From the IMG/VR virus record IMGVR_UViG_2778261203_000004: a stretch of DNA of 11,745 bases; one strand, 5' to 3'. The notes below the pieces were generated by a model that made no database searches, was not told the origin of the DNA, and saw nothing but the letters and a program-made list of their open reading frames with translations. Positions 1,985 to 7,159 of this stretch are shown here, piece after piece. The position numbers and the translations under genes were made by a program. Position 1 is the stretch's first letter. The number at the start of each line of letters is the position of its first letter. This DNA comes from a virus (lineage: Duplodnaviria; Heunggongvirae; Uroviricota; Caudoviricetes).

Positions 1985-2794
1985 TTATTCCTCTGAATTA
2001 TCGATTACACTGTATTCCCCGGTTAATACAGAGGAATCTGCAGGATCGATTGTCAGTGGTTCCTTTTCATCCATTGATACTGCACGCTGGATCTCAATTG
2101 ATACGGGCAAATATTTGAACAGGCGACGAATAGCCGTTTTCTTTGCCATTTCTTCCCAGTGAGTTACCCACGGCCCGTTATTACCAGCTTTACTCAGGCT
2201 GCGCACCAGCTCAATCTGTTTGCGCGTCATAACTTCAAACTGAGTACCTCCGTCTTTCAGTCTTGCGACAGCATAGACGTGGGTAACCGGGGCATCTTCG
2301 TTTTCTCCCGGGCGGTGTATTAACTTTTCATCAAGGCCAAATTCGAAGCTAAACTCGTCACCTTCACGGACAACACGGGCTGACAGGCTGGCGATTTGAC
2401 CAGAACGGCGAGCCAGATCAATCATGCCGCGATAGCCAATGATTAGCTGAACGTTCTTTTTATCGCTCTTTTCGTTTTTATTACCAAAAGGCAGTAAATA
2501 TGCATGACCGAGGGCGCTACCTGGCTCAAGTCCGAGCTGTGAACACTGTACGATCGCACTGACAAAACTCATAGTGTCACAGTTTCCTAACGCCGGAACT
2601 TTACGAATTTCTGTGGTGGCGATACGGATCATACGTTCAGCCGTCATATGGCGTGGAAGAGCTGCTGCCAGTTGCTCTTTCATTGATGGCTGGTTAATAA
2701 AACTAATCACGTCGCTATTTTTAACTGCTGCTGGTGCACGGTTTCCCTGAGTTTTTTGCAGATCGGCTTTTGCGATTGGTGGTTGCTTAGTCAT
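1985..2794 (-). CDS. recT: RecT single-strand annealing protein (269 aa)
   Basis: Protein begins [24 protein letters not shown]. The ATG at 2794 is preceded by AAGGAA at about 9 nt, whereas the track's longer N-terminus (ATG at 2851) has none. The 3' end of recE overlaps it by 8 nt, suggesting translational coupling. Confidence 0.9.
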
Positions 2795-5387
2795 TTGCAT
2801 ATTCCTTAGCCCAGCGGGGCAGTGATAATGTCTTAATAGCTGGCCATTCATCGGTATTCAGGCAGTCAGACAGGGTTCGCAGATTGCGGTGATATTCCTG
2901 TTGACCTGCCAGTTTTGCTTCTTCGCCCATCATGAAAATTTCAACCGGATAACGTCCGCATTCAATAGTTGTGCTGGCAACCAGAAAAACGAAAGTTGGC
3001 TGCACTCCAAACTGTGCTTCATAACCGTCACTGTAGAATGCATCCTGAACGTGATAGCGGTAGTCGTAATAAGCGGTTTTGAATCGTTGAATATCCGCCG
3101 TAGTTTTCACGTCCATGATCCAGTGAAATTCAGGGATAATTTTGTCCGGACGGCACCGACACAAAATTCCTGTTTCAGGATCTTCCCAGTAAATTGATGA
3201 TTCAGCGTGTCCGGCGCTTTCAACAAGCCATTGCCCCAGCGGCAAAGCCATAACGCTTTGATACATGAGTTCAATTTTCCGGCCTTCTTCCGCAGTGATA
3301 ACCGTTTTTCCTGTGCTTGCGCATTCCATCAGAAACGCTTTCTCTTCTTCTTTTCCGGCGTTTGTACGGCGGTTAAATTCAGGTGCTACGATAAAGCGGT
3401 TACTGAATTCTTCCGGTTCAAGTACCCGGCAGTGGAAAGCAGTTCCTAAATCGAGCGTTTTTGTCTTTGTGGTGTCCACGGGGGCATTTTTACGCCACAA
3501 ATATAGTGCCGGAGTATCAGCAATGTCATCGAGCTGAGACTTACTGATACCGGGACCCGCGTGGTAATTCTCATTCGAAATTCCGTAATAAATACCTGGC
3601 TCTATGTCTTCTACGATTACGGGATCTGCGACTTCGCCAGTTTCATCACTGCAATCGCGATGCGGATCGCTGCCAGCATTCTCATTGTGCGGATGTTCAG
3701 CGCCTTCCATTTCCTCCGGATCATTTTCCTTAGCTTCAACCTGACTCTCTTCATCGAATGTTTCCTGGTATGTTGCGTCGCCCATCACCGCACCACAGTC
3801 AGGGCAGTTATCCCCGCCAGTCTGGCCGCAGGCATTGCAGGCTATTTCCGGTTCCTGTTGCACTACTGGCTCAGGTTGATTCATATCCGGGCTGGTTTTT
3901 TCCGTTTCTGGCTGGTTCTGGTACACACAATCGCGAGTCTGGATCCCCTTTACCCATTTCGGATCGTTCGGGTCGCTAATTCCGTCAACAAATTCATCAC
4001 GTGATGCAGCAAGCAATTTATCGGCATCGACAGGATTTTTTGATGGAATGTTTTTCCGGGCTTCATGGAGTTCTGCCCGCAGTTCCTGATATTTCGCATC
4101 AACAGAATTTACCTGTGACTGAGCATCCAGCGGCTGCGTGTCCTGATGATGTTCAGTTGCGTCCGGTTCCATTGTTTCAGCCTCTCCCTGTTCAACTGCC
4201 GTTGTTCCAGATGGTTGCGGTTTTTCTTCATCATCCTGTTTTCCTTCTTCTGTTACTCGCTGCGGCATCGGGGCAGAGGAGCGACCGCAGGCAATATCCA
4301 CGATTTCCGGATCAGGGTTGGCATGATCGGTTTCAGTCAGTACTTTGTTCAGATATTCAGTGACGTGCGCGGGGATGACCTCGATCCCAATTGGTGCTTC
4401 TTTTACGGACGCAACCACGATGGCGCGGGAATAATCCAGCCCGCCAGGCATGGTGATGAATTTGTCGCGGAAAACAGAAAAGGGCGGTTTATTTTCAGCG
4501 ATAATTTCCTCAATGCGTTTAGCGTGTGCCGGATGAAGGTTATAGATGTCCAGATCCATTGAACGGGCCAGTACGCCAGTGGCTACGTCGCGCGCCAGTG
4601 ACGTCAGATCGTGTACGAAACCTTCGCCGCGATCGGTGAGGTTTCCGCCGCCAGCATTAGCACCGGAAGCCGTGCGAGTGATGTGTGAAACACGATTACC
4701 CTTCATCCACTCTTTTGTCAGCAGTCCTCGATCGGTGTAGTCAGCGTTCAGGTATGCTTCGAAAAAAGCAGTTATCAGTCCCAGGTTTGAATTACCAGGA
4801 TTAGGGAAAACTTTGTCAGTGTCACGAACCAGTTTGTGGAGTTCGCGAATTTCCAGCGGGTCGAGCAGGCTGGTTTTGTGGGAAACAGCCAGGGCAGTAA
4901 CAGCCGGTAGTTCTTCAGCCCGAGCAATGTGTAATGCCTGGAGTCCGTCGCGTGAAACGTGCGTTACCGGTTTTTCGCTGCCGTGTTGAGCAAGCCAACG
5001 AATGGGCAGTTCCTGGCCAGAAATTGGGAGTAGCATATTCTCCTCAATCTCAGTCATGTCTTCGCCGTTGACGTTGGTATTGCCTTGATAGTGAGCGTTG
5101 TCTGGTGCTGCTCCCGGTTTTAGTTCCCATGTCATGGAGTCTTTGCTGAGTTGATAGCGTTCACTCCAGGTAAAATCGATCTCACCTTCAGCGGGCAGGT
5201 CATTAACGACAGGAAAATTCGTGGCAACAGCTTTAAAATAGCTGCTCAGTTTTTTACCTGACTTAACGATCAGGTAGTCCAGAGTGGCACAGGTCGATTC
5301 AAAATCGTTGCTTGCCCACAGGACGACGTCAGGTTCACCGGATGATTTTTTCGCTTTCCGTAACAGGAAGAGTGGTTTTGTGCTCAT
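2787..5387 (-). CDS. recE: RecE exonuclease VIII (866 aa)
   Basis: Single 866 aa ORF; GAGG Shine-Dalgarno upstream of ATG at 5387. Long acidic, low-complexity N-terminal and central region, then a C-terminal nuclease region. Directly upstream of recT with an 8 nt overlap. Confidence 0.9.
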
Positions 5388-5458
5388 TGTTTTTTAACCT
5401 CAACTCAGATTAAAATTCGTTTTGTTCAGTGAATGATCTTGCCGGATACACACTGTTC

Positions 5459-5483
5459 ATAGCCTGCGCCATACGCAGGCTAT
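5459..5483. other. Perfect 10 bp stem / 5 nt loop hairpin in the racC-recE intercistronic region
   Basis: ATAGCCTGCG ccata CGCAGGCTAT, every stem position pairs. On the + strand it is followed by TTTCTTTC; on the minus-strand (operon) transcript it sits between the racC stop (5489-5491) and the recE ribosome-binding site. Confidence 0.5.
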
Positions 5484-5488
5484 TTCTT

Positions 5489-5764
5489 TCAGATTTCACC
5501 TTTTAATTTCATTGCAATTAGAGTTGCCAGAAATTCGGCTTTTTTTTCTGCGGGCAGATTCTTTCCGATATGCACCAGGCACATTTTTTTGACACCTTCA
5601 TCAAGTGTTTTTACGTTGCCTGATGGACCATCGATATCAACCACAGTGAATGGGGTTTCTTTATTTTCTGTTTTAATTACGTAGCCAATGCGCTTTCCTT
5701 CCAGATTCACCTCGTGAACAATGTCATCGGTAGTTACAACAGTGGCTTCATAATTGGTAATCAT
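5489..5764 (-). CDS. racC: Small prophage protein RacC, function unknown (91 aa)
   Basis: 91 aa ORF with a perfect AAGGAG Shine-Dalgarno (complement of 5768-5773) upstream of ATG at 5764. Sequence MITNYEATVVTTDDIVHEV recognised from memory. Confidence 0.8.
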   Translation of the reverse strand: MITNYEATVVTTDDIVHEVNLEGKRIGYVIKTENKETPFTVVDIDGPSGNVKTLDEGVKKMCLVHIGKNLPAEKKAEFLATLIAMKLKGEI

Positions 5765-5837
5765 GTTTTTCTCCTTAATTAGGTTGAGCGAATACCTGCC
5801 ATTTCTGGCATAAATTCAGTTTCGAATAGTCAATTAA

Positions 5838-6008
5838 TTAAAGTTCATGTGCCATCTGGTCTTTTTCGGCACAAGCTTCACTGCAATATTTTCTCGGTTC
5901 GTCTTTTGATAAAATCCCGTGCATGAAGTGAAGCATTCTTTCAATAGCTTTGCTTTCTTCAACGTCTTTTTTGCAAAGGTGGTAAGCACATTTTATTTTC
6001 TTAGTCAT
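5838..6008 (-). CDS. ydaE: Small Cys4 putative zinc-binding protein (56 aa)
   Basis: Below the 60 aa cut-off of the ORF track. My hand translation of the complement from 6008 gives [56 protein letters not shown], stop at 5838-5840. Cys at positions 7, 12, 42 and 46. The ATG overlaps the kilR stop as ATGA; GGAG sits about 9 nt upstream. Confidence 0.7.
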   Translation of the reverse strand: MTKKIKCAYHLCKKDVEESKAIERMLHFMHGILSKDEPRKYCSEACAEKDQMAHEL

Positions 6009-6229
6009 CACCATGACTCCGCCTTTACAGGTAAACCATCACGACCGAGGAAGACTTTAATCATGCGGTCAGTAATGCATGTTTTTGTGGTCAGGTTACG
6101 AATATATAGTTTTCGCTTTTTAATATTGTTTGCCGAGGCAATATATGTCCGGCCTTCATGAAGAACATAATCGCCAGGAGTCACACACTGACGTGGTATT
6201 TCATCAGTTCCGAAGTGATGTGCAATCAT
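6008..6229 (-). CDS. kilR: KilR, prophage Kil-type cell-division inhibitor (73 aa)
   Basis: [46 protein letters not shown]...; ATG at 6229 preceded by TGGAGAT. The track ORF starts 4 codons further upstream without a ribosome-binding site. Confidence 0.8.
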
Positions 6230-6404
6230 AATTATCTCCATTTTTACAAATGAACTTTGTTGATGCGGTGCCTGGTGCCTCCAGGTGACTGCAACCAGTT
6301 AACAATTACAGTCGGCTTTCCCACCCAAACCAATAAGGACTAACATGACTTTTAACTGTGCCACGTGCGCTTAGCCGCATTCACCGCATCACAAAATTCA
6401 CTTT

Positions 6405-6452
6405 AAAAAGGGCGGACATCAGCCGAACTTCAAGAAAAAAACTGATGCCGCC
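6405..6452 (-). terminator. Candidate imperfect stem-loop followed by a T5 run on the minus strand, inside the kilR-sieB gap
   Basis: Minus-strand reading: GGCGGCATCAG - about 19 nt loop - CTGATGTCCGCC, then CTTTTTAAAG. The stem has one bulge and the loop is long for an intrinsic terminator, so this is weak. Confidence 0.25.
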
Positions 6453-6670
6453 AGGACTACACACAGCAATGTCGTTATTTACAACCGGAGGCGCACTCCC
6501 ACCATTTAAATTTAACAGACAAGACCGACTCTTTATGGATATCGGAAATGCGCCTTCGTGTTGTGCCCGGTTTTATTTCACCACCTCCGGGCTTCGGTGG
6601 TCTCGGCTATACCCCTACAGCGAGAGCTTGTGTTAACATTTCAATACCCTTACAGTTGAGAGTTATTGAT

Positions 6671-7159
6671 ATGTTGGATGTATTTACTCCATTGTTGAAA
6701 CTTTTTGCTAACGAGCCACTCGAAAGACTTATGTATACGATTATCATTTTTGGTCTCACTCTCTGGCTGATACCGAAAGAGTTTACTGTCGCATTCAATG
6801 CTTATACTGAAATACCTTGGCTCTTTCAGATTATCGTTTTTGCCTTTTCTTTCGTGGTCGCCATTTCCTTCTCAAGATTGCGAGCACATATTCAAAAGCA
6901 TTATTCATTACTGCCAGAGCAACGAGTATTGCTTCGTTTATCTGAGAAAGAAATCGCTGTATTTAAAGATTTCCTTAAAACAGGAAATCTTATTATCACT
7001 TCTCCTTGCCGTAACCCGGTTATGAAAAAATTAGAACGGAAGGGCATCATTCAACATCAGAGTGATAGCGCAAACTGTTCTTATTATCTCGTCACCGAAA
7101 AATACTCCCATTTTATGAAGTTATTCTGGAACAGCAGGAGTAGACGTTTTAATCGTTAG
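6671..7159 (+). CDS. sieB: SieB superinfection-exclusion membrane protein (162 aa)
   Basis: Start taken at ATG 6671 (MLDVFTPLLKLFANEPLERLMYTIIIFGLTLWLIP...), not the track's upstream ATG at 6548. Two hydrophobic helices (TIIIFGLTLWLI; WLFQIIVFAFSFVVAISF). It is the only + strand gene inside the leftward block. Confidence 0.8.
   Translation: MLDVFTPLLKLFANEPLERLMYTIIIFGLTLWLIPKEFTVAFNAYTEIPWLFQIIVFAFSFVVAISFSRLRAHIQKHYSLLPEQRVLLRLSEKEIAVFKDFLKTGNLIITSPCRNPVMKKLERKGIIQHQSDSANCSYYLVTEKYSHFMKLFWNSRSRRFNR

Follow-up and report, generated by a model that had tools for sequence, protein, structure and literature searches.

Is the zinc finger YdaE of the Escherichia coli Rac prophage a partner of KilR, or does it belong with the RecE region?

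The genes kilR and ydaE follow one another in the early leftward operon of the Rac prophage of E. coli, the former encoding a growth inhibitor and the latter a 56-residue protein with four cysteines, and the two reading frames overlap. This raises the question of whether YdaE serves KilR or whether its place in the operon has another origin. The pair is already known and annotated, and zinc binding by YdaE is known by report; as both genes are annotated and KilR is well studied, the original finding of the pair adds little. Of modest interest, and not described in the literature searched, are two patterns: ydaE is invariably linked to recE, and YdaE is repeatedly fused to unrelated mini-proteins encoded upstream. 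Both bear on the answer and are considered below.

The window considered here, namely, the whole stretch of 11,745 nucleotides that was analyzed, comes from the Rac prophage (99.9% identity). Positions 5400-6700 share 99.9% identity with many E. coli chromosomes, and the RefSeq names assigned to this region are racC, ydaE, kilR, and sieB. The remainder of the window is read as comprising intR, recT, recE, and the racR and ydaS side of the prophage, as well as the RalA sRNA. Rac-type ydaE DNA is found in 1684 of 5426 complete E. coli genomes (31%), and Rac-type kilR in 1882. Downstream of ydaE on the minus strand lies recE (2787..5387), encoding the 866-residue exonuclease VIII, with racC (5489..5764, minus strand; NF007306 at 206 bits) being found between the two. 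A crude promoter scan returned no sigma-70-like site within positions 5400-6700, an outcome consistent with transcription reading through from an early promoter further upstream.

On the minus strand, kilR (6008..6229) begins with the ATG at 6229-6227 and runs for 73 codons to the TGA at 6010-6008. An in-frame ATG is also found at 6241, yet the 73-residue start is favored because a Shine-Dalgarno motif read from the sequence, GGAG at 6239-6236, lies only 6 nt before ATG6229. The predicted product is a member of NCBIfam family NF008465 (“FtsZ inhibitor protein”; 161 bits against a cutoff of 92, model positions 1-73 of 73), matches phrog_294 (“Kil”) at 4.6e-37, belongs to Pfam family PF27398, and is the same gene product, with no difference, as the KilR of earlier studies (PMC5793797; PMC12482147). 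On the same strand, ydaE (5838..6008) extends from the ATG at 6008-6006 through 56 codons to the stop at 5840-5838. Its product is a member of NF041288 (“YdaE family protein”; 86 bits versus the cutoff of 35, spanning model positions 1-50 of 50) and of phrog_1520, precomputed matches to Pfam PF27493 are present on all of its homologs, and the protein is identical to the founding YdaE of E. coli K-12. As curated family cutoffs are exceeded in both cases, kilR and ydaE can be taken from their sequences to be real genes; RefSeq annotates them at the same coordinates, as genes of 73 and 56 residues with a one-base overlap. Two other ORFs overlap positions 5838-6229, one of 80 residues on the plus strand (5919-6161) and one of 51 residues on the minus strand in another frame (5834-5989), with both overlapping the two family-matched genes.

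The sequence-only reading had described the ydaE ATG as overlapping the kilR TGA in an ATGA motif. The overlap is real, although the motif is TGATG (6010-6006, minus strand), such that stop and start have only base 6008 in common, and not the four-base ATGA. The coding-strand junction reads CGGAGTCATGGTGATGACT. A second in-frame ATG, at 6014-6012, would yield a protein of 58 residues and an overlap of 7 nt; the 56-residue start is better because the ydaE Shine-Dalgarno motif, GGAG at 6020-6017, found within the kilR codons for Ala-Glu, is 8 nt from ATG6008 and only 2 nt from ATG6014. The junction, GGAGTCATGGTGATGACT, is identical in 75 of 78 Rac-type loci. In two others, TAATG is found and the one-base overlap is kept, while in the remaining locus ATA replaces the ydaE ATG, meaning that translation must start at an upstream ATG or GTG.

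The same segment is predicted by RNA folding to form an mRNA hairpin, AGUCAU-GGUG-AUGACU (6003..6018, minus strand), the 6-bp stem of which is lengthened by AAAGG/CCUUU. The hairpin spans part of the Shine-Dalgarno motif, both candidate ydaE AUG codons, and the kilR UGA, and its palindrome is conserved in 77 of the 78 Rac-type loci. The RNA between positions 6070 and 5970 folds with an energy of -26 kcal/mol (z = -2.1), with 5 of 200 shuffled sequences folding equally well. In related loci with any of the other junction types, a Shine-Dalgarno motif is found at the same place. The anatomy expected of coupled genes is thus present, with the stop and start overlapping, the downstream Shine-Dalgarno motif lying within the upstream ORF, and the junction being conserved. 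As such, translational coupling of ydaE to kilR is plausible, as judged from these features. Ribosomes terminating at the kilR UGA, within the hairpin loop, would open the ydaE initiation site or re-initiate there, and KilR and YdaE would probably be made together. Independent initiation at ydaE is also possible, since its Shine-Dalgarno motif is well placed. The two genes are induced in parallel in cells expressing a foreign C protein (more than 70-fold for kilR and approximately 40-fold for ydaE), with the gene encoding the RacR repressor being the only Rac gene down-regulated in such cells. Still, overlap of stop and start codons is frequent in phage operons and is, alone, no evidence of functional partnership.

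The sequence-only reading took KilR for an inhibitor of cell division, in agreement with published work, where the protein is described as a growth inhibitor directed at FtsZ and MreB (PMC5793797; PMC12482147). KilR has no sequence relationship with lambda Kil (PMC5793797). The gene is normally silenced by Rho/NusG and is induced in oxidative stress through OxyS (PMC5793797; PMC12482147). The core of Kil is predicted, in a homologous fusion protein, to be a small SH3/KOW/Tudor-like beta-barrel, whereas the active part of KilR has been shown to be its disordered C-terminal tail: toxicity requires the last 12 residues, but not any particular identity of the final three (PMC12482147). The codons for the last residues, A-E-S-W, double as the ydaE Shine-Dalgarno motif and as part of the predicted hairpin, which may explain why they are conserved at the nucleotide level despite the irrelevance of the last three residues.

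The most obvious role for YdaE would be that of a KilR partner, be it a modulator, a chaperone, an antitoxin, or a co-effector, with the overlap fixing the stoichiometry of the two proteins. The one-base overlap and the placement of the ydaE Shine-Dalgarno motif inside kilR are in line with such a role, as is the appearance of ydaE in the low-insertion list of one TraDIS study, together with the antitoxin genes higA, hipB, and relB. The behavior of KilR points the other way. Expression of KilR alone from a plasmid elicits the full phenotype, namely, filamentation, loss of the Z-ring, and death, all suppressed by excess FtsZ (PMC5793797; for toxicity of KilR alone, see also PMC12482147). Moreover, the toxicity of the chromosomal locus, where ydaE is presumably co-transcribed, is lost upon deletion of kilR alone (PMC5793797). 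That this toxicity requires kilR despite the likely co-expression of ydaE argues that YdaE does not neutralize KilR. Likewise, the Keio strain deleted of ydaE was viable enough to be assayed, and transposon insertions in ydaE were enriched under several chemical stresses in Tn-seq experiments.

Beyond such high-throughput screens, no function is assigned to YdaE in the literature searched, as the sequence-only reading had also stated. The Keio ydaE deletion strain showed lower susceptibility to killing by the Agrobacterium type VI secretion system (T6SS), an effect that was only partially complemented, and ydaE was named as a candidate gene for survival of kanamycin, the MIC being three-fold higher.

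What kind of protein, then, is YdaE? Translation of the gene exactly reproduces the four cysteines noted earlier, at positions 7, 12, 42, and 46 (C-x4-C ... C-x3-C). In an alignment spanning genera (alignment A4), these four residues and the helix D50-Q-M-A-H-E55 are invariant; among YdaE alleles, the exceptions to the cysteine ligands are C7W (allele P0015) and C12Y (allele P0016). An AlphaFold2 (AF2) model built from a 13-sequence alignment (pLDDT 81) contains short strands, a long beta-hairpin at residues 22-41, and a C-terminal helix at residues 44-55. YdaE is thus a 56-residue Cys4 zinc finger with a putative site for a single zinc, in which a short zinc knuckle at the N-terminus precedes the hairpin and the helix. 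The small zinc-binding fold that the sequence-only reading had anticipated is therefore borne out by the model, while several sources already name the protein “Rac prophage; zinc-binding protein.” Blindauer et al., in 2002, reportedly described an E. coli protein that binds one zinc via four cysteines and adopts a GATA/SmtA-like fold. In PMC6892955, zinc binding by YdaE is credited to that 2002 study, and the metal analysis earlier proposed for YdaE thus appears to have been published already.

By sequence motif, the closest solved relative of YdaE is the zinc-finger site of cyanobacterial SmtA (PDB 1JJD; PF02069). A profile search of PDB sequences with YdaE returned SmtA weakly (E = 0.15), yet the motifs KCA..C..V..SKAI.R and YCSEACA agree, such that all four cysteines and their flanking motifs align, and structural superposition gives 43% identity over 40 residues. 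YdaE differs from SmtA in lacking the further cysteine and histidine ligands of the Zn4 cluster, in having a hairpin longer by 12 residues and a conserved C-terminal helix, and in being encoded in a prophage operon. The AF2 model resembles not only the SmtA finger but also YacG (PDB 4TMA), a 65-residue zinc-finger inhibitor of DNA gyrase. A Foldseek search against viral structures gave no match at E <= 0.001, returning only uncharacterized small proteins.

Sequence variation in ydaE points to constraint at both ends of the protein. Between Rac-type ydaE alleles, dN/dS is 0.2-0.5, as befits a genuine gene; pN/pS is 0.1-0.2 at the ends, reflecting strong constraint, and approximately 0.7 over the hairpin, reflecting relaxed constraint. 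Diversifying selection was considered for the variable patch (codons 13-40) and rejected, as pS is also high there alongside the pN/pS of approximately 0.7, a pattern suggestive of relaxed constraint or of exchange of a small segment.

The distribution of YdaE was compared with that of Kil. When 1.84 billion representative proteins were searched exhaustively by profile, the YdaE family amounted to only 30 clusters at 50% identity. All fetched loci with a credible host label were of the Enterobacteriaceae type, the hosts being Escherichia, Shigella, Salmonella (Gifsy-1/2), Klebsiella (phages), Kluyvera, Enterobacter, Leclercia, Citrobacter, Siccibacter, Phytobacter, and Atlantibacter. In a comparison set of 48 related loci, the gene upstream of ydaE was tallied for approximately 44 enterobacterial YdaE loci. 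It encoded Kil in only 14 instances, an unrelated protein of 38 residues in 16, and other ORFs of 63-72 residues in 10; in one Klebsiella phage (locus L005), the equivalent upstream gene encodes a DUF1482 protein. In every lineage, the upstream junction is tight (-8, -1, +4 to +11, or +33 nt). Rac-type junctions consist of TGATG or TAATG, while in HK225-type loci the kil stop codon is followed by 10-33 nt that contain GGAGG. The gene encoding the 38-residue protein (MIDFARKPARQQAV...LAQKGDPDV; phrog_22279) overlaps ydaE by 8 nt, as ATGCTTAA or ATGTGTAA, with the ydaE Shine-Dalgarno motif falling in its Q-K-G codons. The idea that this protein is a shortened Kil was rejected, given an hhalign probability of 0.2%, and the two are not homologous.

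KilR-family genes are, moreover, found in 147 phage records as compared to 20 for YdaE, such that most Kil-bearing phages lack YdaE. Phages with a Gam-like gene in their recombination module have other genes after Kil, and YdaE is absent from them. The co-occurrence expected of a toxin-antitoxin pair is thus not seen for KilR and YdaE, be it in phage records (147 versus 20), in YdaE loci (14 of approximately 44), or in complete E. coli genomes (1882 versus 1684).

At the same time, YdaE is found naturally fused to its upstream neighbors. In-frame Kil-YdaE fusions of 124-129 residues, carrying both PF27398 and PF27493, form six clusters (207, 56, 21, 20, 3, and 1 members) that share 56-100% identity. 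These are found in Atlantibacter, Phytobacter, and relatives, with the Atlantibacter fusion gene lying between the gene for a CI-like repressor and recE-recT. Two types of fusion junction were seen, “...GDPMIQG...KC” and “...GNGLSNSLPEGGMQTKKC”, the second of which translates the old spacer and Shine-Dalgarno motif. Fusions of the 38-residue protein to YdaE, 88-100 residues in length and corresponding to phrog_6751, account for about seven of the 30 family clusters; one, in an E. coli prophage, lies upstream of genes encoding “RecE-2,” containing PF06630 only, true Gam, RecT, and YqaJ. The fusions are not sequencing errors, since they are too diverged. Such joining of YdaE to whichever small protein lies upstream, Kil or the 38-residue protein, is unusual for tiny phage proteins and offers a concrete handle on the uncharacterized families phrog_22279 and phrog_6751.

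Six Kil-YdaE fusion clusters, diverged down to 56% identity and using two junctions, argue for some functional tie between YdaE and its neighbor, and it is to the linker of these fusions that the KilR tail essential for toxicity aligns. YdaE is, however, equally joined to the 38-residue protein, which bears no relationship to Kil. In an AF2 model of a naturally occurring Kil-YdaE fusion, the two domains are independent and do not pack against each other (pTM 0.44; linker pLDDT <50), a lack of contact that neither supports nor excludes binding. The suggestion of the sequence-only reading that YdaE modulates Kil accordingly fares poorly: the fusion clusters speak for it, whereas the rarity of YdaE among Kil-bearing phages, the usual presence of a non-Kil gene upstream, the toxicity of KilR on its own, the viability of the ydaE deletion strain, and the inheritance of ydaE with the 5′ end of recE, described next, speak against it. 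A dedicated partnership with KilR is considered unlikely.

If the gene upstream of ydaE varies, that found downstream does not. A RecE homolog is encoded downstream in every intact YdaE locus with sufficient flanking sequence, including both fusion contexts. The RecE start lies 32-496 nt past the YdaE stop in all loci but one (L029), where the longest recE ORF begins earlier. The distance is usually about 140 nt, rising to about 450 nt when a small gene, encoding RacC or phrog_2434, intervenes; racC itself is found in 11 of 49 loci, all of the Escherichia type, with phrog_2434 or nothing being present there in other lineages. When loci with different upstream genes were compared, DNA homology was found to start between -21 and +16 nt from the ydaE start and to extend without a break across ydaE and a few hundred bases into recE. 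Because the homology block begins at the ydaE start, a mosaic boundary must precede ydaE, separating it from the upstream gene, kil included, and ydaE travels with recE. Indeed, the linkage persists even though both the upstream gene and the middle portion of recE have been exchanged. The co-inherited unit, as defined by these sequence comparisons, would thus be ydaE together with the 5′ end of recE. Shigella phage 75/02 Stx encodes Kil and RecE and lacks YdaE, so that YdaE is dispensable for a RecE-bearing phage. No fusion of YdaE to RecE or RacC was found, and the ydaE-recE linkage could reflect inherited gene order and not shared function.

Considering these observations together, the explanation put forward is that the known Rac kilR-ydaE pair is probably coupled in translation, with YdaE not being a dedicated partner or antitoxin of KilR and instead belonging with the RecE-type recombination region; as a whole, this is given an even chance of being correct. 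Comparative genomics suggests that the gene preceding ydaE is interchangeable, with ydaE lying directly upstream of recE in related enterobacterial prophages. The reading committed to here is that YdaE is a protein-binding zinc finger that would act via its invariant helix (CAExDQMAHE), much as YacG acts on gyrase, even though this is the weakest step of the proposed mechanism. The best candidate target would be the non-nuclease N-terminal part of RecE (PF06630) or some other player in the processing of DNA ends. Taken singly, the proposal that YdaE belongs functionally with the RecE region is tentative and is held with low confidence. The more specific proposal, that YdaE is a third component of RecE/RecT-type modules and the zinc-finger partner of the N-terminal non-nuclease region of RecE, is decidedly more doubtful. 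Were it true, the coupling and fusion of YdaE to Kil and to the 38-residue protein would connect arrest of the host physically with the recombination apparatus of the phage. Recombineering routinely employs full-length RecE, yet we know of no function for its large N-terminal region, and a small conserved partner for that region would be directly testable.

About as improbable as the KilR partnership is that YdaE is an independent small host-interference protein, its adjacency to other genes, overlaps, and fusions being by-products of tight packing and of gene order inherited within one lambdoid lineage. Lambdoid phages carry many small, mutually unrelated genes for host interference in their early-left operons, and the YdaE family is tiny and confined to one lineage, with 30 clusters among 1.84 billion proteins and an enteric genus as the source of every fetched locus with a credible host label. 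Moreover, a single-base deletion suffices to convert the 8-nt overlap into a fusion (compare P0052 with Gifsy-2). Yet the fusions are old and have diversified and so are not recent accidents, and the linkage to recE has survived exchange of the upstream gene and of central recE.

Far less probable is that YdaE supplies the RecBCD inhibition otherwise missing from RecET-type modules, as an analogue of lambda Gam found where gam would be, between kil and the recombinase genes. Where Kil is followed by a module with a Gam-like gene, the latter is the first or second gene after Kil, approximately at the place of ydaE in Rac, and modules of the Gifsy-1 type (RecE and RecT) have no recognized anti-RecBCD gene (PMC12315714, Table 1). 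P22 Arf, which aids recombination (PMC12315714), and lambda Gam are, like YdaE, of a similar order of size and encoded between kil and the genes for the recombinases, the resemblance to Arf considered here being that of position and size. However, Chi sites are abundant in 14 of the 21 Gifsy-1-type phages, a feature that the authors connect with absent anti-RecBCD activity and with active RecBCD (PMC12315714). In addition, at one locus (L137) a YdaE fusion and true Gam (PF06064) are encoded in a single module, and no sequence or fold similarity was found between YdaE and Gam, GamL, Abc2, or MuGam. Both the Chi-site statistics and co-occurrence with true Gam thus count against a Gam-like role.

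That YdaE handles zinc, as a metallochaperone or mini-metallothionein, an assumption made in some lists of genes for zinc homeostasis, is least probable of all, its motif-level similarity to SmtA and its listing as a “putative Zn2+ chaperone” (PMC6892955) being set against a score below the Pfam threshold for prokaryotic metallothioneins (PF02069; 20.5 bits versus 33), a ligand set limited to the four cysteines of one structural site, with no counterpart of the C-terminal Cys/His ligands of SmtA, the location of the gene in a normally silent prophage operon (PMC12482147), and the presence of ydaE in only 31% of complete E. coli genomes, with patchy distribution across all three zinc-MIC classes (PMC6892955).

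Finally, assignment of YdaE to the Rtr1/RPAP2 family (PF04181) was likewise rejected. The profile match covers the finger core, with the zinc knuckle alone matching the Rtr1/RPAP2 zinc finger, and its 28.1 bits fall below the gathering score of 33. The label “Rtr1/RPAP2 family protein phosphatase” carried by phage homologs of YdaE is therefore very probably an over-annotation, and the database labels “DNA breaking-rejoining protein” and “Zn chaperone” are likely to be further instances.

Natural in-frame fusions of KilR and YdaE, 124-129 amino acids in length, were found in Atlantibacter, Phytobacter and relatives (P0049 and P0060-P0064). These proteins comprise six clusters, with identity falling to as low as 56%, and present two differing types of junction. 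In the related loci fetched for comparison, the fusion gene lies at 4001-4375 in L134-L135, at 27-401 in L136 and at 4779-5153 in L048, with recE-recT found directly downstream.

In many enterobacterial prophages, the YdaE start is overlapped by 8 nt by a gene encoding a protein of the phrog_22279 family (MIDFARKPARQQAV...LAQKGDPDV), a conserved family of proteins of 38-40 amino acids. This gene, found at 2383-2499 in L004 and 2182-2295 in L005, as well as in L017, L021 and L037-L047, ends some 7 nt past the YdaE start. Homology of the family to Kil was considered and rejected. Proteins of the phrog_22279 type were also found joined to YdaE, corresponding to phrog_6751 (P0026, P0035-P0037, P0046, P0052 and P0053). 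Examination of one E. coli prophage (L137, 4729-8279) revealed the gene order to be such a 38-aa protein-YdaE fusion, a 91-aa gene product, a 664-aa PF06630 protein, Gam, RecT and a YqaJ exonuclease. The 664-aa protein matched PF06630, the non-nuclease N-terminal part of RecE, only, with no match to a nuclease domain being obtained. Given this pairing of a PF06630-only protein with YqaJ, the link of YdaE is with the part of RecE outside the nuclease domain, and it persists where a different nuclease is present.

Comparison of Rac-type ydaE alleles revealed a hypervariable patch within the gene (window 5889-5948, approximately codons 21-40), in which identity was 62%, as compared to 95-100% in the flanking DNA. 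Synonymous and non-synonymous changes were both high in the patch (pN/pS of approximately 0.7), suggesting either that a short stretch of DNA has been exchanged or that constraint on the hairpin is relaxed. In some E. coli and Shigella alleles, a zinc ligand of YdaE has been lost: the cluster with the C7W replacement (P0015) has 220 member sequences, and that with C12Y (P0016) has 19. In L014 and L015, a 28-aa ydaE remnant adjoins a racC remnant. Together, the ligand-loss alleles and these remnants indicate that ydaE decays in some cryptic prophages.

ydaE has been listed among low-insertion genes in a TraDIS screen, together with the antitoxin genes higA, hipB and relB and the Rac gene ydaS (PMC5821084, Table 2). 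This listing conflicts, however, with the viability of the Keio ydaE deletion strain and with another Tn-seq study, in which ydaE insertions were enriched under stress. The discrepancy could stem from the small size of ydaE as a target, or from inserted cassettes that activate recET through a polar, sbcA-like effect.

DNA resembling that of enterobacterial prophages was found in several records labelled as unrelated organisms (L008, L046, L007 and phage PP818812.1 (H19)). Two MAG contigs, one labelled 'Candidatus Nanosynbacter' and the other 'Proteobacteria', contained the E. coli Rac YdaE region at 100% protein identity. A YdaE nearly identical to the Enterobacter/Citrobacter type was encoded on a contig of 517 bp labelled 'Geodermatophilus sabuli', and an 'Actinobacillus phage' record contained YdaE at 98%. 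These occurrences probably reflect contamination or mis-binning. Some records (among L002, L005 and P0010) annotate the YdaE homolog as 'Rtr1/RPAP2 family protein (phosphatase)', a label resting on a match that is below threshold and confined to the zinc knuckle, or as 'DNA breaking-rejoining protein', for which no basis was found.

Elsewhere in the window, the RalA sRNA, antitoxin of the RalR type I toxin-antitoxin system, was detected at 1557-1735 on the plus strand (Rfam score of 225 bits; gathering score of 170). The recE gene of the window (2787-5387) is intact, encoding 866 amino acids; in E. coli BLR(DE3), a B strain (L001, 4889-5988), recE is annotated as a pseudogene fragment, together with a short 'RecE family' ORF. 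Finally, window RecE includes a C-x2-C-x8-C-x2-C motif (residues 517-531; window 3795-3839, minus strand), a possible zinc knuckle, in an acidic linker ahead of the nuclease domain.
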